From positions 96,001 to 160,000 of IMG/VR virus record IMGVR_UViG_3300021958_000023: DNA of 64,000 nt; one strand, written 5' to 3'. The number at the start of each line of letters is the position of its first letter. Position 1 is the first letter of the stretch. The DNA is from a virus (taxonomy: Duplodnaviria > Caudoviricetes). The notes beneath the pieces were generated by a model. It was not told the DNA's origin, ran no database searches, and saw only the letters and a program-made list of their open reading frames with translations. Shown piece by piece: positions 28,918 to 47,567 of the stretch. Both the position numbers and the translations under genes were made by a program.

Positions 28918-29927
28918 TAATCAAATACCTCTACTAAATCAAAACCAACAGAATAAAAATTATCAATAGGATTTGTACCAGCAGAGAGAACTTGTCTAAT
29001 ATCTAAATTGCTATCAAAACGAACTGTAATAGTTCCTGGCTCATTAATATGTGTTAGTTCAAATAAAAATGCTTCAAAACCACCTGATCTAGCACGATAG
29101 AATTCTTCAATAGCGGATTTAACAATTCCTGTGACATTAGTATACTCTATAGAAAACTTTCTCTTTGGTCTTCTACTTATAAGTCTTCTTTTTTCGTATC
29201 CTGCCTGAAATTCAGCTGTTTTATAGTTATATTCTTCTGAGAATTGAATTCCTGAGCGATCAGGTTTTTTATCTGCCATTGAATCTAAACGAGAAATTAC
29301 CTTCTCTTTATTGAAAGTTGTAAGAGACAGAGTATTAACACCGCCGGTAGGATCAGCTGTTGTATTAGATAAAGGAATTGTAGCAGCTGTGTCTGAGCCA
29401 ATATTTATTCCTTGTGATCCTAGTGTTGAGGATGGGTACGTAAATTCTGAAGCATTTTGAGTAACACCGTCTATTGATACAAGAATATCATCTTTTACAT
29501 CTATTTTACTGTTTTCTGGAAGAGCAAAATGAAGTTGATTGCCATCAATTGCAAAACTATTACTAGATACTGTAACATTTGCTCCAGAGTATGTAATAGT
29601 TTTAACATCGGGGAAAGCACGAAGTATCTCAAATGAGGGAGGAATTCTAATAACACGTAATTCTACATTAAGACCTAAACCAGGAGCGTCATCGAATACG
29701 ATTGTATTTTTTAAACTTGTATTTAAAGTATTAGTATTACTTAAAGAGTAAGCACTAGTAGACTGAGGCACACCCTCAACAACAGCAACAACTTCGCCAA
29801 CTTTTTCAGCAGGTTCTGATAAATTAAATGCTGTTTGAGTACTTGTACCTGTATAGTTTATTCTAGATAAAGCAGGGATTAATAGAGGATTAAATGTTGC
29901 ATCGTTTGGATATCTTGCTGTTGCCAT
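28917..29927 (-). CDS. Distal tail protein (lambda M-like C-terminal domain) with two N-terminal beta modules
   Basis: Follows tape measure; F.AGYEKRR...F.ARSGGFEAFLF...VRF...FDLVEVF; N-terminal modules resemble those in the fibre genes. Confidence 0.7.
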   Translation of the reverse strand: MATARYPNDATFNPLLIPALSRINYTGTSTQTAFNLSEPAEKVGEVVAVVEGVPQSTSAYSLSNTNTLNTSLKNTIVFDDAPGLGLNVELRVIRIPPSFEILRAFPDVKTITYSGANVTVSSNSFAIDGNQLHFALPENSKIDVKDDILVSIDGVTQNASEFTYPSSTLGSQGINIGSDTAATIPLSNTTADPTGGVNTLSLTTFNKEKVISRLDSMADKKPDRSGIQFSEEYNYKTAEFQAGYEKRRLISRRPKRKFSIEYTNVTGIVKSAIEEFYRARSGGFEAFLFELTHINEPGTITVRFDSNLDIRQVLSAGTNPIDNFYSVGFDLVEVFD

Positions 29928-32900
29928 TATCTACCTCTCATCGCTTTTCTTACTTTACCGTTGTTTTCAATATCTTTTACTACAAGATCAATAATAAGTT
30001 GTCCCATATCATTTCTGACTGTTGAAGATTCAACCTGTTGTGCAGTGCCATTATTTTGTACATTGACTGTAACTGGAGGAGTTTGTCCGTTCATTTTACC
30101 TGTTGCATTTAACTGATTAAGGGCAGAACCTCCAATAGCTTTTGCAGCTGGCTTACGAATCACAAACTCGCCTGGTTCTAACAAAGCAGGAACTCTGTCG
30201 CGAAGAGTATTTACAGGTCCTCCTTTTGCAAAACGCATAATACCACCATAAGGATCTACTTTACCACCACCAGCAAAACCAAATGATGCTGCAGCCTTTT
30301 GTGCCATAATACGAATAAACATTTCAAGAAATGCTGCAATAATAGCCTTTTTAAAGTCGCCTGTAGCAGCGAGCACACCTGCAAAAGCAGCAATGGTAGT
30401 GCCTTTTACATTTTCCATAATTCCTGAAACTCCTGAATTAATTTCTGCTCCAATCTCTTTAACACCTCTCTGCCCATCACCAGCAGCACCTGATTGAAGA
30501 GCTTGTGTTTTAGTAGCTGAACCATCTTCTGATTTAGATTTTATCAAAGCTGTAGTAAACTTGTCTTTTGCTTTATCAACATAAGAAATGACTAAATCTT
30601 TGATTGGTTCATTGATTAGATTGTCAATAAAGGCTTGTTGAATATCTAAAAGAAGATTAACAAATAAAGTTTTCACTCCTTCTCTGAATGTTTTTGTGGT
30701 AAGAGTACCTTCATTAATAGCTTTAAAGAAATCATTTACTGAACCAGTTAAAGTACCAGAAATACTAGACTTCAAATCATTAGCAATGTTAGTAATTAAA
30801 TCAAACTCTTCTTTTAACTGACGAACTTTTTCTTCGTGATTTAATAATTCAAGAGCTGCCTCTTTATCAAGGTTCTTGATAATATTATCAAACAGTTGTT
30901 TTTCTATATCTTGTTCAATTGCTATATTAGCTAATTTTTTTACAATAAGATCATTAGCATTTTTAATATCATTTATTGCAGCTTGATTTTTTTCTGATCT
31001 TAGTTGGTTTTGTAAGTCTCTTTCTTTTTCAATTAATGCAGTTACCTCATCATATAAAGATATTTTTTTATTTAACTCATCTCTAGTAATTTCGCTTTGA
31101 GCTTTTGAGTTTTTAACTTGAAGTTTATAAGTATCCATAATACCGTCTTTAGCATCTTTAATATACTCATCTAAACTTTGTCCTCCAATATCAAGACTGA
31201 TTTTACCTATGTCTGGAAGTTCAACTTCTTTTATTATACCGATAGCTTTTAAAAGTCCATTAATTATATCTGACTCAGCTTCAATTAATTTTTTTCTACC
31301 TTCTAAGTAGCTTTTTGCTAATTCTATTTCTCCTTTTAGTAAAGAATAGTTTGCCTCAACTAATTTTAGTTCTGCTAATCTGTTATCTTTATCTGCTTCG
31401 ATTTTAGCAAGGTTGATTTTTTCTTGAGTATTTAATACACTTATTTGCAATTCAAGAGCCCTTCTTTCGTTTGCTCTTTTCTTATCTTCTAGTTCTTGTA
31501 AAGGAAGAATTATTTTATTATATTCAAAATTATTTTCTTTTCTCAATGCTGCAATTTTTTCATCATTAATGTCTTTTTCTGCTTGTAACATTTCCATTCG
31601 ATTACTGAGTTCAACTTTTTTCACATCATACTCAAACTGAGCAATAGCACGTCTTCTTTCAATATCATTAAGATTATTTTGATTTTCTACCTCTAATAGT
31701 TTCATTCTAGCATTAAACTGATTTTGAGAAGTAGAAGTAGCAGCCTTTTCAACTTCTATTCTAGCATTTAAAAGCGCTTTTTGATCATCTAATTCGCTAG
31801 TAATTTGTGTACCCTCTAGCTGTGCTCTTGCTAGCTTACTTTGCAAAGACTCTCTTTCTTGGTCAAGTTGTAGTAAATTTTTATACTGTTCTAACTCTTT
31901 TACTCCTGCTTGATTTCTTGCTTTTTGTAGCTCTAAAGAAATTTTTTCTCTATTAATACGCTGAATTCTTACATCTAATAATTCTTTTTCAAGTTTATTT
32001 TGAGATACAAGCGCATTTACAGCAATTAATTTGTTTTGAAGTTTTAGAGCGTCAATCTGTTGTTTCATCTGTATAGCTCTTTTTTCTTCTATTAGTCTAA
32101 TCTTTTCTAGTTTTGCAGGTAATTGAATAATAATACCTGCTTGAGCTTTAAGGGCTGCAATACCAGCCTGATAAATATTAACTGTATCGCCATTTAAATT
32201 TTTACCTTTTTTCTGTTCATCATTTAAAGTATTAAAAGCATCAATAGTTTGTTGTAAGTACTTAACTCTATTAGCCTGTTGTTCTGCGGCATTTTTAGCT
32301 AGAGAACCGTCTATTCCTAAAACACCTTGAGCAATAGCAGTATCGACTGCTCTAATTTCTTTAGAAAAAGATTCTCTAAATGTTTTTAAGTTTTTTTCCG
32401 CTGCTAATAGTTTCTCAGTTTCTTTACTTTGTGTTTGTATTCTATAAGTTAAAAATAGAATACTTTCTGCTAATGCTTTATTTTGTCCACCAGCAGCTTT
32501 TTGAGCTTCTTCTAATTCTTTTAATATATTTTTATATCCTAAAAGAGTTTTTGCTGATTTCTCAGCAGTAATAGTTCCTGCATTAAAGGCATCATCATAA
32601 GTAGTTTTAAGATTCGCTAGTTTAGCTTCAGAATCGAATACTACTTCACCAAATTCTGTAAATCTAGCTACTCCGTCTTGTCCAACCTGTCCTATTGATT
32701 CACCTAATATTAGAATTTCTCCAGAAGCCTCTCTAGACAATCTACCAGCGTCTTTTATTTTTATAATAGCAGCAGCGAAAGCTTTTTCTGATAACCCAGT
32801 GTTTTCTGCTCCTCTAGATATTTGAAAACTAAATTCTCCTAAACCAGATGATACAATTTTTAGAGCATCTTTTAAAGCATTATAAGCTAGAGTTTGTTTA

Positions 32901-34702
32901 GCTATATCCCCTGTACCAGTATCCATCTCTTCTCTAAGCTGTCTCATGCGACCTGTTAATTCTTTTATTTGTTCATCAACAGGAACAGCTACTGTTTTTA
33001 AAAGCATAGCTTCCCACTCATTCATAATTTCTATATTATCTACAGTAGTAGTTGATACAGATTTTATAGCTGTATTAACTAAGTCAGCATAATCAGCAGC
33101 TTCTTCAAGTCCTGCTAATTCAATCATTGATTGACTTACATCTGTTACAGCTGATACTAACCCTTTAAATCCTTTTTCTATCATTCTTTGTTCTTCACCA
33201 AGTTTAGAAAACCAATTAACTACTGAACCAATGGCATCAATACCAAAAAACTGTAATATAGATTGTATTGTAGTTACTGCAAAAAACAATAGATTTAATT
33301 TAGATAGCGCAAACCCTACTGCAGTACCAAATGCTGTAACAGCTACAGAAGCTACCTTAGTGCTTTTAGCTAAAAATCTGGAAGCTATTCCAGCTTGCTG
33401 TTCTGCCAAGGTTAGTTCTCTAACAGTTTGTGTTAATGCTCGTGTTCTTCCTCTTGATTTTTCTAAGGCTATATTTTTCTGTTCTAAAGTTCTATTACTT
33501 GCTCTAACTGCAACCTGAAAAGCACGTTCTTCAGCTATTTGAGCTTTTAATGCGTCTCTTGCTGCTTTTGCCTCAGCTACTGAACCAATAGAACCACTTA
33601 AAACAGCTTGTTTAGCTTTTGTAGCTTCTCCAGCTATCTCTCTACGACCTGCAAAACCTCCTTGACCAACAAAGCCTCCAGCAGCTTCTGTTGCTTTAGC
33701 AGTTGTAGCTGCAAATTGTTCTGAAGTCCCTCCTAGTTTTCGAGAAAAAGATTCTAAAGTTCCTAGAGCTTTATTAAGACCAACAACAGAAGATTGGGTA
33801 AATTGTGCTACTTGTTGTGCTGCTCCTCTAAATACAAGAGTAAATATACCTCCTAAAACTAAAAGAGTATTACCAAAATCTTTTGACAAAAAAGCCACAA
33901 AAGGTTCTATAAAATTGGCTATAGATATACCAATTTTAGTAGCTAAGTCTAAGAATTTTGCGGAAAGTTGTTCGAGAGATTTTTGCGCACTGCGAGAAGA
34001 TAAGTCGATTTCATTAAATTTTCTCTGACCTTCTTCAGCTACAGCATTAGCAAACGCTTGACGACGTTCAAACTCAGTTAATGATCCTACGCTTCTATTT
34101 AACGATGCTGCATATTTTTCAACAGCTGGCTCAATACGAGTAAAGATACCAATTTCGTCTAATAGTTCAGGTTCTAGTTTAATAGCACCACGAAATACAC
34201 GCTGAATAGACTCAGTTAAATTTCTACCCAAAGCTTTGGATGCTTTAGTAGCTACTTCAGTTAGTTGCTCAATTTGATCTGTATTAAAACCCGCAGATAA
34301 AGCAATGTTAGCATTTTGAGCAGCTTCAGCGGCTGTTAATTGACCTTGTGTTACTTCTTGAAGTTTAGATATAATAGCATCACCACTTAATCCAATTTCA
34401 GCAGCAAGTGTACGAGTACCTCTAATAGTAGTTTCAACTTGAGCAGCGCGAGATAGTGCAGAAAAAGCCTGCTGGACTGCAAAGATATTTGCAGCTGCAC
34501 CAGCATAAGCAGCAACAAAACCGCCTAAGCCAGAGGCTTGAGCGGCAAATTGTCTACCTGAAGCAGCAGAAGCTTTTCCTAAATTTTGAGAGGAACGAGT
34601 AGTACGCTCTTGAGCTTGATTCAGCTTATTGACGTCTTTAGCAGCTTTATCAAAACCTTGTGTGGTAGCTTTGGTACGAATCTCATTTATTCTACTAGCC
34701 AT
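29927..34702 (-). CDS. Tape measure protein (T5 pb2-like)
   Basis: 1591 aa helical; T5-like N-terminus (AYAGAAANIFA...GAIKLEPELLDEIG), hydrophobic segments, C-terminal FAKGG...DRVPALLEPGEFV. Confidence 0.9.
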   Translation of the reverse strand: MASRINEIRTKATTQGFDKAAKDVNKLNQAQERTTRSSQNLGKASAASGRQFAAQASGLGGFVAAYAGAAANIFAVQQAFSALSRAAQVETTIRGTRTLAAEIGLSGDAIISKLQEVTQGQLTAAEAAQNANIALSAGFNTDQIEQLTEVATKASKALGRNLTESIQRVFRGAIKLEPELLDEIGIFTRIEPAVEKYAASLNRSVGSLTEFERRQAFANAVAEEGQRKFNEIDLSSRSAQKSLEQLSAKFLDLATKIGISIANFIEPFVAFLSKDFGNTLLVLGGIFTLVFRGAAQQVAQFTQSSVVGLNKALGTLESFSRKLGGTSEQFAATTAKATEAAGGFVGQGGFAGRREIAGEATKAKQAVLSGSIGSVAEAKAARDALKAQIAEERAFQVAVRASNRTLEQKNIALEKSRGRTRALTQTVRELTLAEQQAGIASRFLAKSTKVASVAVTAFGTAVGFALSKLNLLFFAVTTIQSILQFFGIDAIGSVVNWFSKLGEEQRMIEKGFKGLVSAVTDVSQSMIELAGLEEAADYADLVNTAIKSVSTTTVDNIEIMNEWEAMLLKTVAVPVDEQIKELTGRMRQLREEMDTGTGDIAKQTLAYNALKDALKIVSSGLGEFSFQISRGAENTGLSEKAFAAAIIKIKDAGRLSREASGEILILGESIGQVGQDGVARFTEFGEVVFDSEAKLANLKTTYDDAFNAGTITAEKSAKTLLGYKNILKELEEAQKAAGGQNKALAESILFLTYRIQTQSKETEKLLAAEKNLKTFRESFSKEIRAVDTAIAQGVLGIDGSLAKNAAEQQANRVKYLQQTIDAFNTLNDEQKKGKNLNGDTVNIYQAGIAALKAQAGIIIQLPAKLEKIRLIEEKRAIQMKQQIDALKLQNKLIAVNALVSQNKLEKELLDVRIQRINREKISLELQKARNQAGVKELEQYKNLLQLDQERESLQSKLARAQLEGTQITSELDDQKALLNARIEVEKAATSTSQNQFNARMKLLEVENQNNLNDIERRRAIAQFEYDVKKVELSNRMEMLQAEKDINDEKIAALRKENNFEYNKIILPLQELEDKKRANERRALELQISVLNTQEKINLAKIEADKDNRLAELKLVEANYSLLKGEIELAKSYLEGRKKLIEAESDIINGLLKAIGIIKEVELPDIGKISLDIGGQSLDEYIKDAKDGIMDTYKLQVKNSKAQSEITRDELNKKISLYDEVTALIEKERDLQNQLRSEKNQAAINDIKNANDLIVKKLANIAIEQDIEKQLFDNIIKNLDKEAALELLNHEEKVRQLKEEFDLITNIANDLKSSISGTLTGSVNDFFKAINEGTLTTKTFREGVKTLFVNLLLDIQQAFIDNLINEPIKDLVISYVDKAKDKFTTALIKSKSEDGSATKTQALQSGAAGDGQRGVKEIGAEINSGVSGIMENVKGTTIAAFAGVLAATGDFKKAIIAAFLEMFIRIMAQKAAASFGFAGGGKVDPYGGIMRFAKGGPVNTLRDRVPALLEPGEFVIRKPAAKAIGGSALNQLNATGKMNGQTPPVTVNVQNNGTAQQVESSTVRNDMGQLIIDLVVKDIENNGKVRKAMRGR

Positions 34703-34710
34703 TAATCATC

Positions 34711-35085
34711 CTATCTAAATTTGGAACCAGCTTTTGCTTTTCGTTCTTCTTGTTTACGCTTTTCTTCATAAAATTTGCTATATTCTTGAATACAAATTTG
34801 AAGCATTTCAAAAGTATCTTTCCAGTTTACCATTTGAAATATTGTCATAATATCTGATAAACCCGCATACTCTTTACCTAACCAAACTCCATTCATACCT
34901 TCAACTTTATCAGGTAATACATTCATTAATACTAAAGCTTGTTGAGCCTCTAAAGATAAATCTGAAGTATCAAGAGGTTGGTCATCAAAATCTTGCCAAC
35001 CCATTTGATCTGCCATTAACCAATATTGTTCTTTTGTAATACCTCCACCTACAAAATTAGACTGGAGGTATTTTATTAGTTTTTT
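34711..35085 (-). CDS. Tail assembly chaperone, -1 frameshift extension (gpGT-like C-terminal part)
   Basis: The -1 frame from the slippery site reads KLIKYLQSNFVGGGITKEQYWLMADQMGW..., in frame with ORF 34711-35016. Confidence 0.8.
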   Translation of the reverse strand, partial: KKLIKYLQSNFVGGGITKEQYWLMADQMGWQDFDDQPLDTSDLSLEAQQALVLMNVLPDKVEGMNGVWLGKEYAGLSDIMTIFQMVNWKDTFEMLQICIQEYSKFYEEKRKQEERKAKAGSKFR

Positions 35086-35507
35086 TCCGCTTCAGCTTTT
35101 TTTGTTACTGAAAACTGTTCAAAATCATTCATACAATCAGTAATAAACTGATCAAATACAGAAGAGTTTTTAATTAGTTCAAGAGCTTCTTCTTCTGAAT
35201 AGGCTACGTTTTCTTCTAGATTAACCCCTGTTAAATCAACAGGCAAGAGTTGTGGAAGATTTTTTAATTTTAAACCTTTCCATCCTCTAATTGCTTTTTT
35301 AGTATAAGCTTCTAAAAACTTATCTTGATCAATCTCTTCTTCTCGCTGACGAGTACGTTTATTAAATTTATAAGTTAAACTTTGGTTTCTAATCTTAACT
35401 AGATCTTCTCTGCTAAGATACGCAATTTTTAAAATAAAACCATCAATGTCTGGATATTCTACTTCAGTGATAGTTTCTGTTGCAATTAAATTTGAAATTT
35501 TACTCAT
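35076..35507 (-). CDS. Tail assembly chaperone (gpG-like)
   Basis: Position between tail tube and tape measure; AIRGWKGLK motif; slippery end. Confidence 0.8.
   Translation of the reverse strand: MSKISNLIATETITEVEYPDIDGFILKIAYLSREDLVKIRNQSLTYKFNKRTRQREEEIDQDKFLEAYTKKAIRGWKGLKLKNLPQLLPVDLTGVNLEENVAYSEEEALELIKNSSVFDQFITDCMNDFEQFSVTKKAEAEKN
35079..35085 (-). other. Programmed -1 ribosomal frameshift heptamer A AAA AAC
   Basis: GAA AAA AAC TAA at the end of the chaperone ORF; X XXY YYZ pattern; open -1 frame. Confidence 0.8.
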
Positions 35508-35533
35508 GTTTTCCCCCTACTAGGTGTTAATAT

Positions 35534-35641
35534 AAAAAAAGGGTGTCCATCATTATTAGCTAAAACAGAGCTGAGGGGGAAGCTCGTTGTTGCTCATGAT
35601 GAACACCCACATGAAATTATTTACCCCCTCAAGTAATAATT
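35534..35641 (-). terminator. Long terminator hairpin plus upstream hairpin with complementary loops
   Basis: GGGTGTTCATCAT...GAGC-TTCCCCCTCA-GCTC...ATGATGGACACCC-TTTTTTT; upstream AATTATTAC-TTGAGGGG-GTAAATAATT. Confidence 0.75.
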
Positions 35642-35644
35642 TTA

Positions 35645-36949
35645 TTAGTTATTATCACTTTTTACGAAGAACTCAATCTCGTCTCCAGAACCACGCTGAC
35701 CTTCTTGTGCAAGGAAGTCAACAGACATTCCAAGAACATCATCAATTTGATGAACTGGAAAGTTAAACTGCACTGCTGGCATTGCAATATGGAAATATGG
35801 AGCAGTTCCACCACCAATTTGAATGTTAGCAGAGCTAGTAATTGCGTGAGACACACGAGAGTCATTCACAACTTTGTTCAAGAACTGTGCAGAGTTTGCT
35901 CTTGTGGAGTTTTCTGAAGCAGATCTTAGATATGCAGTAAATGATCCTGTGATTGTTCTAGATCCTGTAAACTGCCCAATTGGAGTGTTCAGAGCAGCTA
36001 GTTCTTCTGGTGTTAGATATGTAACATCGTTAGAGTAGCTAAAGCTTAGACCAGTTACAGGGAATGAGTATACGTTAGCGCCTTCTGCAGCAGATCCTTG
36101 ATGTGAAATCTCAATAGCACTTAGACGGTTTTTAATAAAGTCAACAGTATAAGTTGAACCTTCTACGTTCATTGTTGCATAAGGATGGTGTGAAGCTGCG
36201 GCTGTAGTAGTAATAGATGCATTAGGAGTAATAGTAGAACCATCGTTGTTAACTCCTCCAAATACAGCAATAGCCTTATTTCTTGCATCGCCTGTTAATT
36301 CAACCATTTCTGTACCAAAACCACTCCAAGTAGTAGTTGCAATTCCATCAACAGAAGCATCGATTTCACCACTGTTTACAATCGCTTTCTTAACTTGGTA
36401 TACAAGGTTATCAAGCTTAAAGTACATATGATTTTCTTGAGCAATAGCAAAGTTAGAACGAGTTGAATGTGTGTTTGCTGATGCTGCAGTATTTGCTGAT
36501 TTAATTTTAGCAGAAGAGGTGTTAGTATCATAGAACCACACAGACTGTTCACCACCGTTTGAAGATGCAGGAGCTGTATTACTAATTAATGATTGCCATA
36601 AATACCAATCAGCTACAGGTTTTGAATTTCCTGTTTCTGCTAATCCTGTACCTTGAGAAGGATCATTTACTTCTGCTCCAGTAGGTCTTAAATATGTTTG
36701 AAAATTCCACTCCACAGGATTACGTGCAGTGTTAAATCTTTGTACACTTCTGTCTGGGTCTAATCCACTCTCTAATGAGGTGATATCTTGAACCGCAGAA
36801 TCAGCAGAAAGAGCGTACCCCGCTAAAACCTCAATTCTCCAGGTATTAGCAGGAGTAAGATCAGCAGCTGCTGTTGAAGTCAGCGACAAGTCTTTTATTG
36901 AGTAAAAGACTGTAGTATTTCTTTGTAAGTTTAGCTGAGTACCCGCCAT
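35645..36949 (-). CDS. Major tail tube protein (T5 pb6-like)
   Basis: LQRNTTVFYS, IEVLAGY, RFNTARNPVEWNFQTYLRP, FIKNRLS, YLTPEELA.LN.PIG.FTGSR.ITGS.TAYLR. Confidence 0.85.
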   Translation of the reverse strand: MAGTQLNLQRNTTVFYSIKDLSLTSTAAADLTPANTWRIEVLAGYALSADSAVQDITSLESGLDPDRSVQRFNTARNPVEWNFQTYLRPTGAEVNDPSQGTGLAETGNSKPVADWYLWQSLISNTAPASSNGGEQSVWFYDTNTSSAKIKSANTAASANTHSTRSNFAIAQENHMYFKLDNLVYQVKKAIVNSGEIDASVDGIATTTWSGFGTEMVELTGDARNKAIAVFGGVNNDGSTITPNASITTTAAASHHPYATMNVEGSTYTVDFIKNRLSAIEISHQGSAAEGANVYSFPVTGLSFSYSNDVTYLTPEELAALNTPIGQFTGSRTITGSFTAYLRSASENSTRANSAQFLNKVVNDSRVSHAITSSANIQIGGGTAPYFHIAMPAVQFNFPVHQIDDVLGMSVDFLAQEGQRGSGDEIEFFVKSDNN

Positions 36950-40089: not shown

Positions 40090-40308
40090 TTAATCATCAA
40101 GAGTAGTAGTTTTTGATGTCTCAGTTACAACTTTTTTAGTAGTTGCGCTTACTGTTCTATTAGTTACAGTAGCAGCGGGCTTTGGAGCTTTGTGTTTTGC
40201 TCTCCACTTAGCTTTCATATCTTCTTTATCAATTCCTGTGTAGGTTAGCATTTGCTCAAGAAATTCTTGATAATCACTAATTGATAATAATCTTTGAATT
40301 GGATCCAT
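40090..40308 (-). CDS. Hypothetical protein
   Basis: GGAGG RBS; lies between capsid and connector genes. Confidence 0.55.
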   Translation of the reverse strand: MDPIQRLLSISDYQEFLEQMLTYTGIDKEDMKAKWRAKHKAPKPAATVTNRTVSATTKKVVTETSKTTTLDD

Positions 40309-40322
40309 TTTTTCCTCCTAGT

Positions 40323-40355
40323 AAAAAGGGGTAGGCGTTGTTTTACACCTACCCC
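40323..40355 (-). terminator. Intrinsic terminator after major capsid gene
   Basis: GGGGTAGGTGT-AAAACA-ACGCCTACCCC-TTTTT. Confidence 0.8.
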
Positions 40356-40396
40356 GTTGTATTAACGCCTAGTTAATGATTTAATAGTCGAAACTA

Positions 40397-41812
40397 TTAG
40401 GAACCAGAACGTACAACCGCTGCATAAGGATACTTAGAAGCATCTAGAGCCGCACTTGAGTTCGTGGTTAGCGCTTTAAAGTCAAAGCGTGTGCTCATGT
40501 ACATCGCAGTGACCTGCTGGCGTGGTTCGTACTCGCTCTCGATTTCCATGCCGCGTCTTTCAGCAATCATGAATCCAGGCTTGTAGACAAGTGCGCCGAT
40601 ATCATAATCAGCACCGCCAACGTTATCTAGGAATTCAGTAATTACAACTGGAATTCCGTAGATGGCGCCAAGTGAACCTGTTAAGTAGGTCGCATTTGGT
40701 CCGAACTTATCAACTGTACGGAAGTCAGACTCAGCTACTAGTGAGTTATAACCTTCAACAGTTGTTAAGTATACTAGCTGATCACCAAGCTGTAGACCGT
40801 ACTTACCAAGTAGGGCACGAGCAGAGGCAATGTTAGCTGGAGAGGCTTTAGTAGAGTTACCACCAGTTTGAACGTTAAGTGCAGAAGCGCCAACAGCGTT
40901 AGCTAGCTCAACAACACCTGTGATAACAGAAGCGAATCCAGCACCACCAGAAATAGCAGCAACAGAGTTAGCTGTAAATCCAGTTAGAGCGCCAGTACCA
41001 CGTAGGATCGACTTATCGATAGAACGTGCTAGACGACGAGTTGCACCAGCGCGGAGGAAGTCGATAACAGGAAGAATTGTATCTTCTTCTTCATCTTTAG
41101 CAATATGAGTTGTAGCCATAAACTTGTGTGGTGTAAACTCAACAGCTTTGATCTGGTTATTACGTCCAGAAGTTGGTACGTTAGTTGTGTCTCCAATACC
41201 AGACGCATATGTACCGTTAGCAAACTGTGCAACGTCGTCAGTGGTATCTTCATCAGCAACTGGTACTCTGAAGGTTTTTGCATCAACAGCAATACGCTCA
41301 AACATTGGAGCAATTACTAACTGCTGCTGCATCTCTTCATAAATATTTGAAGAGAAGTTAGAAAGGAACTGGTCAACAGTTGTGACATCAGCTTTCATAC
41401 GAGCACCAAACTTGGTGTCCATTGGATTAGACTTACCAAGAGCGTGTGCAAGCATAACAGCTTTTGCCTGATCAGCTGAACTCCAACGATCAGAGTTACG
41501 CTGAGACTCCTGCCATACCATCTTGCTGTTCTGAAGAGCAGCAATTTCTTCTCTATATTTTTCCATCTGAGCTTTTAACTCAGCAACAGCTTCGGTCTCA
41601 CGAGGAGTGTAAGCGGTTGAGTGTGTTTCATGCACGATAGTTTGTTTATCTTGTGCATCTGTTTCAGCTAAAATAGCCTGACCAGTTTTTTCGATTAACT
41701 CAGCCACTCTAGGCTCAGAGACTTCTACTGGGGCGGCTTTAGCTTCTGCTTGTTTATTTTCGGTTGCGCCTGTGTCAATAGTTAGCACATCACCTGCAGT
41801 TTGAGTAGCCAT
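40397..41812 (-). CDS. Major capsid protein (T5 pb8-like) from internal in-frame start, 471 aa
   Basis: AAAAGGAG-N9-ATG GCT ACT CAA inside the fusion ORF; coiled-coil delta domain then DEEEDTILP, LARSIDKSILRG, YLTGSLGAIYGIPVV. Confidence 0.7.
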   Translation of the reverse strand: MATQTAGDVLTIDTGATENKQAEAKAAPVEVSEPRVAELIEKTGQAILAETDAQDKQTIVHETHSTAYTPRETEAVAELKAQMEKYREEIAALQNSKMVWQESQRNSDRWSSADQAKAVMLAHALGKSNPMDTKFGARMKADVTTVDQFLSNFSSNIYEEMQQQLVIAPMFERIAVDAKTFRVPVADEDTTDDVAQFANGTYASGIGDTTNVPTSGRNNQIKAVEFTPHKFMATTHIAKDEEEDTILPVIDFLRAGATRRLARSIDKSILRGTGALTGFTANSVAAISGGAGFASVITGVVELANAVGASALNVQTGGNSTKASPANIASARALLGKYGLQLGDQLVYLTTVEGYNSLVAESDFRTVDKFGPNATYLTGSLGAIYGIPVVITEFLDNVGGADYDIGALVYKPGFMIAERRGMEIESEYEPRQQVTAMYMSTRFDFKALTTNSSAALDASKYPYAAVVRSGS

Positions 41813-46678: not shown

Positions 46679-47567
46679 TTGAATTCTCCTCTAAATCGTT
46701 TTTAGGAAGAAACAGAGCATCCTCATCATAGTGATTTCTTAAGCCTTGTAAACTCATCCTTACTTCGTCTACTTTTAACTGATCAAGAAGTTTTTCGCAC
46801 ATTGCATCTAAAAACTCATACATAGGCTTAATTGTATAGTCATCTATTTTTTGTTCATACTCTAAAAAAGCAGCCATATCTAAATGTATTTTTCCAGGAT
46901 TCACTCCTATTTGTTCTAGATACTCTTGCTCTCCTTTTGTAATTCTTCCACTTTGTCTAACATCTCTTAAACACTGAACTAAGCTTCTTTTTAAGTGTGA
47001 TCTTGCTTCTTCTTTTTCAAAGTCTTGTTCAGTATAATCTTTATAATTTTCTTTTAAATCATCGTACAAATTAGATAAAGTTAATACATCTTTCATAGCA
47101 CCTTCAACATATTTCATTCCATTAGCCATGCCGCTTTTTAGTTGAGCAATATCTATCTCTAACAACTGCTTTTTTAAGACATCTTTTTCTTTATCTAGTC
47201 TCTCTTCTTTTTGTTTTAGTTTAATCTCATTCTTTAAATAATTCCATTTTGCTTCTTCTAGTGCTTCTCTTTTTCTAGTCATTTCTGCACTAACTTGTCT
47301 TAAATTTTTCATTGGAGCTGCATAACTTAAGTTAATATGTCTCCAAGTCCATTGTGAATGAGATCTGTTCCAAATTCTTTCAGTCTCTGCAACATTAGCT
47401 ATAGCTATGTCTACTTTTTTTGCATTTTCTGCTAGTGTCAAGTTGCCAAAACTTTTAACATTAGCCATATCACTAGTGTTAAAAACCTCAGAAATAGTAA
47501 CACCTCTAGCTTCTTCAGCTACTTGTACTAAATCTTTATTATCTTTTGTTATTGTAATATCAGCCAT
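46668..47567 (-). CDS. Coiled-coil hypothetical protein
   Basis: NRSHSQW...LRQVSAEMTRKREALEEA...GRITKGEQEYLEQIGVNP. Confidence 0.55.
   Translation of the reverse strand: MADITITKDNKDLVQVAEEARGVTISEVFNTSDMANVKSFGNLTLAENAKKVDIAIANVAETERIWNRSHSQWTWRHINLSYAAPMKNLRQVSAEMTRKREALEEAKWNYLKNEIKLKQKEERLDKEKDVLKKQLLEIDIAQLKSGMANGMKYVEGAMKDVLTLSNLYDDLKENYKDYTEQDFEKEEARSHLKRSLVQCLRDVRQSGRITKGEQEYLEQIGVNPGKIHLDMAAFLEYEQKIDDYTIKPMYEFLDAMCEKLLDQLKVDEVRMSLQGLRNHYDEDALFLPKNDLEENSNDS

Follow-up and report, generated by a model that had tools for sequence, protein, structure and literature searches.

Tail assembly in phages calls for over a hundred copies of the tube protein but only a few of the chaperone and tape measure, and to our knowledge the manner in which late operons deliver such ratios is understood in few model phages only. 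In phage late operons, intrinsic terminators and attenuators are known to separate abundantly expressed structural genes from rarer ones; ribosome-sensitive intercistronic attenuators such as rph-pyrE are also known. In the RNA phages, structure-mediated translational coupling operates between coat and replicase of MS2. Translation of the E. coli rpmI-rplT (L35-L20) operon is controlled by a long-range pseudoknot (PMC1888825). A precedent for switch logic is the thiM platform of Shine-Dalgarno (SD), anti-SD and anti-anti-SD segments, in which the anti-SD binds either the SD (off) or the upstream anti-anti-SD (on) (PMC2018614). For the small RNA OxyS, the description contained in PMC11979758 has the terminator loop kissing the translation initiation region of fhlA.

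The window analyzed here is a stretch of 64,000 nucleotides from a tailed phage (IMG/VR record IMGVR_UViG_3300021958_000023, positions 96,001 to 160,000), and on its minus strand an RNA element of about 135 bases lies between the tail-tube and tail-chaperone genes. This element has features in common with each of the above systems. It resembles thiM in having three mutually exclusive short complementary segments. No aptamer is evident, and the gene context points to no ligand; further differences from thiM are that a terminator-like hairpin bears the anti-SD in its apical loop, that the pairing is a pseudoknot, that the proposed trigger is a ribosome terminating on the upstream gene, and that the anti-SD:SD pairing is without covariation support. 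In OxyS, as there described, exposed loop nucleotides of a Rho-independent terminator likewise pair with a ribosome-binding region; that RNA acts in trans on another mRNA, whereas the loop, decoy and ribosome-binding site (RBS) of the present element all fall within 130 nt of one mRNA. With the phage late-operon terminators and rph-pyrE it shares a hairpin and U-tract 3' of a highly expressed gene, required genes beyond with no room for a new promoter, and an upstream ORF ending near the RNA structure. Unlike those attenuators, its terminator-like hairpin is 68 nt long and branched, a dedicated preceding hairpin pairs with the loop, some lineages do without the U-tract, and the terminator stem starts about 37 nt past the stop codon, out of ribosome reach. 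As in rpmI-rplT and MS2, the structure of a polycistronic mRNA would govern downstream initiation and upstream translation could remodel that structure. However, rpmI-rplT requires the L20 repressor protein on the pseudoknot while no protein is implicated here, and the masking partner of MS2 is part of the upstream coding sequence while the partners in this element are all intergenic.

The gene upstream of the element encodes a T5 pb6-like major tail (tube) protein of 434 aa (35645..36949, minus strand; phrog_3575 at 9.5e-45, and PF18906, the T5-type major tail protein). Its UAA stop codon at 35647-35645 is directly 5' of the element, and a second UAA comes next. First on the 3' side is a tail assembly chaperone ORF of 143 aa (35076..35507, minus strand; phrog_313 at 6.8e-12) with its AUG at 35507, and downstream of the chaperone, in a common transcription unit with the element, is the gene for a tape measure protein of 1591 aa (29927..34702, minus strand; phrog_3779 at 6.2e-39). 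The order of tail tube, tail chaperone and tape measure given in an earlier note on this DNA, made from the letters alone, is confirmed by the phrog and Pfam matches.

Hairpin 1 (HP1; 35614..35642), as folded by RNAfold, has an AU-rich stem closed at the top by U.G, C-G and U.G pairs. The SD-like G-tract UUGAGGGGG (L1; 35624..35632) occupies the loop of HP1 and the first part of its 3' arm. The earlier note had placed this sequence correctly but had called all of it loop; with HP1 folded alone, the loop is a GAGG tetraloop only, since YU and GG on either side of it are paired. Hairpin 2 (HP2; 35541..35608) is a long, interrupted structure. Its basal stem has 13 bp and is followed by an asymmetric bulge on the 3' side, a mid stem and an internal loop; the apical stem above these bears the C-rich, anti-SD-like apical loop UUCCCCCUCA (L2; 35572..35581). 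A U7 tract (35534..35540) abuts the 3' side of the stem, followed by the chaperone RBS AGGGGGAA (35511..35518), 8 nt of which are complementary to L2. Each feature first described (stop, both hairpins and their loops, U7, RBS and AUG) is present at these minus-strand coordinates, and we verified in the sequence both 8-bp complementarities of the HP2 loop, to the HP1 loop (UGAGGGGG/CCCCCUCA) and to the RBS (UUCCCCCU/AGGGGGAA). An 18-aa uORF across HP2 (35612-35556) was considered as a leader peptide and rejected as a feature of the whole family; its start codon is missing in clades 0, 4 and 6.

The 166-nt region folds at -43.1 kcal/mol (z = -3.05 against shuffles). There are 52 G or C runs of at least 5 in the 173.5-kb genome, and the sole 130-nt window holding three of them is the element. 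When the runs are scattered at random, a window of this kind arises at some place in the genome with P = 0.034, which makes the clustering by itself only marginally unusual. The element is judged real because it is conserved in relatives, and not because of run clustering alone. An Rfam search, suggested earlier and now run with release 15 (cmscan, 35000-36200, both strands, E up to 10), returned noise alone and no family match; the best hit reached 23.7 bits where the gathering threshold is 111, and no hit overlapped the element. Because many of its pairs are G.U, which on the opposite strand become A-C mismatches, the structure is specific to the mRNA strand, and a function of the other strand is unlikely.

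Conservation marks the element as a genuine cis RNA. It occurs in 83/83 distinct variants of the junction from 13 clades, with tube protein identity down to 49%, answering the earlier proposal to look for it in related phages. (Clades of the intergenic regions were defined by average linkage; single linkage had merged 80/83 into one cluster.) The carriers are a family of uncultured T5-like phages, and the position is always the tube/chaperone junction. A covariance model (CM) scores all 83 variants at 63-134 bits, with one strong match per locus in 83/83 and one in the 173.5-kb genome. No strong second copy was found in that genome or in the 83 loci, the sole additional match being weak (20 bits, E = 0.077) and falling on an element downstream of the capsid gene. 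A sequence-pattern scan of viral contigs, which is no census of the family, gave 80 listed matches of which 77 are chance; among the matches listed, the CM-positive ones lie solely between tube and chaperone genes. At the DNA level the 2.3-kb region has no match among GenBank phages. The cultured T5-like phages Escherichia phage T5_ev212 and Vibrio phage Morian have these genes in the same order, and their tube protein is homologous to that of the window (25-29% identity by tblastn). However, their tube and chaperone genes are separated by 4-14 nt that hold no RNA element, and the RNA is therefore regarded as an innovation of the uncultured clade.

Both hairpins are supported by paired changes. 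In the alignment of variants the HP2 basal stem is 96.6-98.4% paired, with compensatory changes in 11-12 of 12 pairs; in MAFFT alignment A3, 79.6% of HP1 cells are paired, against about 45% in slid controls, and 8/10 HP1 pairs have changed on both sides. The L1 core GAGGGG and the L2 core CCCCUC are each invariant in 83/83 variants, and a contiguous L1:L2 helix of 7-14 bp is available in every one of the 83. The flanks of this helix covary across the 13 clades, with both-side changes at five pairs (counts for pair k7: GC 56, AU 12, GU 11; for pair k8: AU 38, CG 9, UA 7, GC 2). Permutation of own against cross-clade partners gave 20/20000 for helix length (P about 0.001) and 32/20000 for duplex energy, a clade-level result that bears out the loop-loop covariation proposed earlier as a check. 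Pairs k7-k10, in the HP1 3' arm, covary with both the HP1 5' arm and the L2 flank. Since the same bases pair with both, HP1 and the L1:L2 helix are alternatives.

The arrangement corresponds to an H-type (A-B-A'-B') pseudoknot in which A:A' is L1:L2 and B:B' is the HP2 basal stem, each of them covarying. A kissing geometry with both stems intact would be compatible with only about 6-7 bp, and the covarying k7-k10 lie inside the HP1 3' arm. The kissing loop of the earlier note is thus retained in part: the HP1 G-tract and the HP2 C-loop do pair, with covarying flanks, but the helix enters the HP1 3' arm. Judged by this covariation, the element appears to be a bistable pseudoknot competing with HP1 rather than a plain loop-loop kiss. 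The same note had ribosomes terminating on the tube gene disrupt HP1; because the helix extends into the HP1 3' arm, melting HP1 should favor, not abolish, the pairing of G-tract and C-loop. Accessibility-corrected energies across the variants are -5 to -17 kcal/mol for L1:L2 against +2 to -14.5 for SD:L2, and L1:L2 becomes more favorable once the first 10 nt past the stop are masked. At equilibrium, with HP1 folding allowed, L1 outcompetes the RBS for L2 in almost all variants.

In the window, HP2 and its tail have the form of an intrinsic terminator, a 13-bp basal stem followed by U7 on the mRNA strand 3' of a gene, and HP2 with its U-tract resembles such a terminator in most variants. The U-tract is strong (5 or more T among the 8 nt that follow the stem) in 61/83 and lost (3 or fewer T of 8) in 11/83, with HP1, HP2, L1 and L2 intact. 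Given the variants that have lost the U-tract, termination is not the universal function. A size of 68 nt and a branched shape are atypical of intrinsic terminators, and HP2 measures 66-75 nt and is branched across the variants, so that the constant U-tract and compact hairpin of a classical terminator were not found. A simple terminator scanner missed HP2 because of its loop limit of 8 nt. U-tract strength does not trade off against RBS complementarity among the variants (Spearman 0.08, P = 0.46). As to geometry, HP1 starts -3 to +8 nt from the stop codon in most variants, so a terminating ribosome would reach it, and the distance from stop to L1 is 10-15 nt in 66/83. In a few clade-2 variants (L093, L144 and L137) HP1 starts 17-19 nt past the stop, out of the range of a terminating ribosome.

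The third partner gave a different result. Of a switch built from SD, anti-SD and anti-anti-SD, the anti-SD:anti-anti-SD pairing is present as L1:L2. The loop-RBS covariation for which a check had also been proposed was absent under the clade-level partner permutation (4878/20000, P=0.24). In 9/13 clades no neighboring gene has an RBS that pairs with L2 as well as the chaperone RBS does, and in 8 clades the L2 pairing of the chaperone RBS is among the best 1% in a pool of 321 RBS regions; of the 213 RBS regions in the window genome it is about the 5th best. Complementarity is modest or weak in clades 2, 4 and 6, and two clades of one variant each, L104 and L038, lack it (about -3 kcal/mol). 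The G-rich RBS could be retained by inheritance rather than by selection. As L1 takes L2 at equilibrium, an RBS-masked state would need to be a kinetic trap.

Going by the conserved pairings and their position, the element probably sets the amounts of chaperone and tape measure relative to tube protein. The reading we favor, which we hold tentatively and at a little under even likelihood, is that of a conserved bistable cis RNA that would scale chaperone and tape-measure expression down relative to tube and tie it to tube translation. HP2 and the U-tract would form a leaky intrinsic terminator in most lineages, and with leaky termination only a fraction of transcripts would carry the chaperone and tape-measure genes. 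L2 would act as an anti-SD that transiently masks the unusually G-rich chaperone RBS, and L1 as an SD mimic, or anti-anti-SD, whose stronger binding of L2 would free the RBS. L1 would be held partly locked by HP1 until a ribosome at the tube stop codon unzips the HP1 5' arm, as would be expected because HP1 starts 0-8 nt past the stop and L1 lies 10-15 nt past it. Released L1 would then capture L2 and so license chaperone translation, the outcome being long-distance translational coupling across a terminator. This ribosome-actuated relay, with HP1 unzipped and the SD mimic stripping the anti-SD terminator loop off an RBS about 110 nt downstream, we consider conceivable and rather doubtful.

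The element could also be a structural 3'-end module and nothing more, HP2 being a terminator or processing barrier and L1:L2 compacting and protecting the abundant tube mRNA at its 3' end. It would then shield against 3'-to-5' exonucleases or RNase E, or tune termination efficiency, and the likeness of the RBS to L1 would be incidental. Such a module would fit the universality of HP1, HP2 and L1:L2 beside a U-tract and an RBS complementarity that are each dispensable in some clades, the standing of L1:L2 as thermodynamic ground state, and the lack of L2:RBS covariation. It leaves unexplained why a 6-nt SD-like/anti-SD-like core is frozen in 83 variants while 11/12 basal-stem pairs have changed, why in 9/13 clades no neighboring RBS complements L2 as well as that of the chaperone, and why HP1 is kept up as a competitor of the pseudoknot helix; we would call this account possible, though not probable. 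Coupling in the opposite direction, as first suggested, appears improbable. Here intact HP1 would present L1, the kiss would hold L2 off the RBS, and ribosomes terminating on tube would disrupt or occlude HP1 and L1 and free L2 to repress, so that heavy tube translation would lower chaperone and tape-measure synthesis. The three-partner complementarity is identical under both directions, and L1, 10-15 nt past the stop, is near enough to the leading edge of the ribosome for steric occlusion to be conceivable. Against this, the k7-k10 covariation puts L1:L2 in the HP1 3' arm so that intact HP1 hinders the pairing, and masking of the first 10 nt past the stop favors L1:L2.

An action in trans or through a protein seems equally improbable. 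The element might be a small RNA derived from the terminated 3' UTR, with a C-rich loop directed at G-rich RBSs elsewhere, and its two hairpins, terminator and U-tail are small-RNA-like; other genes of the genome carry RBSs of UGAGGGG or GGGGG type complementary to L2, and five RBS regions score at least as high as that of the chaperone for L2. Yet the seed would be largely masked in cis by L1, the U-tail is missing in 11 variants and the element is strictly confined to one junction. Alternatively, GAGGGG/CCCCUC might be bound by a protein or nuclease of phage or host, for instance as an RNase III-type processing site. The invariant core suggests a third partner of fixed sequence, and HP2 is similar in size and interrupted shape to the RNase III sites of T7, but there is no candidate protein. 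With respect to a riboswitch-type aptamer core, the only conserved nucleotides seen in junctions or bulges outside L1 and L2 were a GA in the 3' bulge region.

The element is a well-populated, covariation-supported RNA family absent from Rfam, and it unites a terminator-like hairpin, a pseudoknot and SD mimicry exactly at the tube/chaperone junction. If the favored relay is true, it would be a previously undescribed long-distance coupling across an intrinsic terminator that, together with attenuation, fixes the tube : chaperone : tape-measure ratios, a matter of relevance to research on both RNA regulation and phage assembly. It would also be a compact, protein-free means to couple and scale the expression of neighboring genes, and possibly a part for synthetic biology. 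Should the structural reading alone be true, the element would still be a new conserved 3'-end module of a major structural mRNA.

Downstream of the element, a second chaperone frame (34711..35091, minus strand; phrog_3914), open from position 35091 on, overlaps the first chaperone ORF at the latter's end. It is probably entered via a -1 frameshift at A_AAA_AAC (35085-35079), and a hairpin at 35070-35040 lies beside this putative site.

On the - strand of the window, the UAA stop codon of the tail-tube gene (35647-35645) is followed by a hairpin (HP1, 35642-35614) with the top UUGAGGGGG, an interrupted 68 nt hairpin (HP2, 35608-35541) with the apical loop UUCCCCCUCA, a U7 tract (35540-35534), the ribosome-binding site (RBS) AGGGGGAA (35518-35511) and the AUG of the tail-chaperone gene (35507). 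All of the features that the earlier note had claimed 3' of the tube gene are present on this strand and match its description exactly. The flanking genes form a T5-type tail module, comprising tail terminator, major tail protein, two-frame chaperone and tape measure. Folding of the 166 nt region gave z = -3.05 relative to shuffled sequences. Three G5/C5 runs within 130 nt, considered improbable by chance in that note, are indeed found only once in the 173.5 kb IMG/VR virus record from which the window is taken, yet random placement of the 52 G5/C5 runs of the genome gives P = 0.034 for such a cluster anywhere in it, and clustering alone is weak evidence.

The Rfam search called for at the outset matched no family, and the GenBank phages gave no DNA-level match. 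The tube protein shares just 25-29% identity with its counterparts in T5-like phages, and in T5 and one Vibrio T5-like phage the gap from the tube gene to the next gene measures 4-14 nt, with no element within. To judge by these sequences, the element is absent from every Rfam family and cultured phage. Relatives were collected by scanning viral and metagenomic contigs under protein guidance, which yielded 146 loci, 128 of which contain both genes (tube identity 98-49%). With the window added, the 128 loci provide 83 different intergenic sequences, 127-165 nt long. The element proposed from a single sequence is kept in 83/83 of these variants, with the shared layout of stop codon, HP1 with a YUGAGGGG top, HP2 with a CCCCUC(A) apical loop, T-rich tail and RBS. 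A covariance model built from the 83 sequences gave one strong match at each of their loci (63-134 bits) and one in this genome, where no second copy was detected. In an independent sequence-pattern scan, the model-positive loci among the matches listed were located solely between tube and chaperone genes.

Helices were counted on a plain MAFFT alignment, not fitted to structure. The basal stem of HP2 had 96.6% of cells paired and 11 of 12 pairs changed on both sides, and HP1 had 79.6% paired and 8 of 10 pairs so changed; slid controls, to which the count of changed pairs does not apply, were paired in ~45% of cells. Because G.U pairs are frequent, the structure belongs to the mRNA strand. The element is an RNA that is conserved, present in single copy and specific to one strand, and both of its hairpins covary. 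At the top of HP1, weak U.G, C-G and U.G pairs enclose a GAGG tetraloop. The 3' strand of HP2 carries a conserved asymmetric bulge of 4-6 A/U-rich nt (~35553-35560, at the same position in all clades), which separates the basal from the mid stem and follows a conserved RGYWGA-like segment, one A of which is invariant in 83/83 variants. This bulge may be a bend allowing the apical loop to fold back onto HP1.

The G-tract at the HP1 top and the start of the HP1 3' arm (L1, 35624..35632) pair with the C-rich apical loop of HP2 (L2, 35572..35581) through 7-14 contiguous pairs in all 83 variants. The register was anchored on the invariant core, with positions k counted from the base preceding GAGGGG. 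Core positions k1-k6 (GAGGGG:CCCCUC) never change and the flanks vary: k7 is GC in 56 variants, AU in 12 and GU in 11, k8 is AU in 38, CG in 9, UA in 7 and GC in 2, and k9-k10 take several pair types. Examples across clades are GGGGGAAC:GUUCCCCC, GGGGAAA:UUUCCCC, GGGGGUU:AACCCCC and GGGGGCAAA:UUUGCCCCC. When the sequences were grouped into 13 clades and partners were shuffled among clades, own-partner helices proved longer (sum 122.8 vs 109.9; observed value reached in 20/20000 permutations) and also more stable (32/20000). Counts from the MAFFT alignment and a model-based alignment were concordant. Positions k7-k10 covary with the HP1 5' arm as well, and therefore HP1 and L1:L2 share nucleotides and are alternatives. 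Together, L1:L2 and the HP2 basal stem form an A-B-A'-B' pseudoknot, the covarying helix of which competes with HP1. Of the kissing loop first envisaged between the hairpins, the pairing itself is borne out by covariation, but this pseudoknot goes beyond a pure loop-loop kiss, since k7-k10 also pair within HP1. The frozen 6 bp core, set against a basal stem changed at 11/12 pairs, argues for a constraint beyond simple pairing; candidates are the need of the G-tract to pair both with U in HP1 and with C in L2, and a link to Shine-Dalgarno (SD)/anti-SD recognition. An 18-aa uORF (- strand, 35556-35612; AUG 35612-35610, UAA 35558-35556) starts 11 nt past the L1 G-tract and spans the HP2 5' arm and L2. 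It occurs in clades 1, 5 and a few others, and clades 0, 4 and 6, in which the start codon is missing, are without it.

Accessibility-corrected energies of L1:L2 range from -5 to -17 kcal/mol with HP1 free to fold and, more favourably in most variants, from -5 to -19 kcal/mol when masking of the first 10 nt past the stop stands in for a terminating ribosome. The corresponding range for RBS:L2 is +2 to -14.5 kcal/mol, and in almost every variant L1 outcompetes the RBS for L2. The predicted ground state is L1:L2, and therefore any masking of the RBS would be a kinetic state, relieved on HP1 opening. In most variants HP1 starts -3 to +8 nt from the stop; the start of L1 is 10-15 nt past it in 66/83. 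Established toeprint geometry implies that a ribosome on the stop codon would extend over the HP1 5' arm, with L1 at its leading edge; in a few clade-2 variants HP1 is 17-19 nt downstream and out of its reach. In many relatives (L023, L026, L029 and other clade-0 loci; first 11 nt past the tube ORF) the tube gene ends with UAAUUAAUUAA, which places stops in all three frames directly 5' of HP1.

Loop-RBS covariation, a check named in the earlier note, was not found by permuting partners among the 13 clades (-155.9 vs -153.3 kcal/mol; 4878/20000). Two single-variant clades (L104, L038) have practically no L2:RBS complementarity, and in clades 2, 4 and 6 it is modest. The RBS of the chaperone gene is unusual all the same: it ranks ~5th of the 213 RBS regions of this genome in pairing to L2, pairs L2 better than the RBSs of all neighbouring genes in 9/13 clades and, in 8 clades, is among the best 1% when 321 RBS regions of neighbouring genes are pooled. 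SDs of this genome are of the ordinary AGGAG type, with GAGGG 5' of just 11/185 ORFs. The U-tract holds at least 5/8 T in 61/83 variants, and from its sequence termination is likely in most lineages, this one included. Termination is not a universal function, as 11 variants have lost the U-tract (<=3/8 T) and retain all else. U-tract strength showed no trade-off with RBS complementarity (Spearman 0.08, P = 0.46).

We infer that HP2 and the U-tract would attenuate transcription of the downstream chaperone and tape-measure genes, with L2 serving as anti-SD and L1 as anti-anti-SD. HP1 would most plausibly be opened by ribosomes finishing the tube gene, giving positive long-distance coupling. Negative coupling, the direction first proposed, is disfavoured, as intact HP1 hinders L1:L2 pairing instead of presenting L1. 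The other rivals to positive coupling are a 3'-end or stability module of purely structural function and a trans-acting small RNA, protein-binding site or RNase III-type site. Outside the window, the RBS region of an 82-aa ORF, GUAGUAGGGGGAA (G000:C1:61765-61788, - strand), is almost the same as that of the chaperone, and two more genes, with starts near 47567 and 49506, have UGAGGGG-type RBSs; all three are complementary to L2 and, were the 3' UTR to act as a small RNA, would be candidates for targeting in trans. The anti-SD/anti-anti-SD logic of the preferred positive coupling is that of the thiM expression platform (PMC2018614), and the terminator loop would have the role known from OxyS-fhlA (PMC11979758). 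Terminators that attenuate downstream of abundant structural genes are known, as are sequestered SDs with a competing decoy and downstream cistrons governed by pseudoknots; their combination and this RNA family are not known.

A probable -1 frameshift signal of textbook type (35040-35091, - strand) joins the two chaperone ORFs, a layout expected for a G/GT-type tail chaperone. Its slippery heptamer, A_AAA_AAC (35085-35079), is located just 5' of the stop of ORF1, an open second frame runs from 35091, and the hairpin UACCUCCA...UGGAGGUA (35070-35040) begins 8 nt downstream of the heptamer. A layout similar to that of the element is seen 3' of the major capsid gene (40306-40399, - strand), a weak match (20 bits, E = 0.077) to R1, a covariance model built from the element. 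Here the stop codon lies within a UUCG-capped hairpin, and a small hairpin follows whose UAGGCGUU complements the 3' arm of the next, canonical terminator (GGGGUAGGUGU...ACGCCUACCCC-U5), after which comes an AGGAGG RBS. This site may be a classical antiterminator-type switch.
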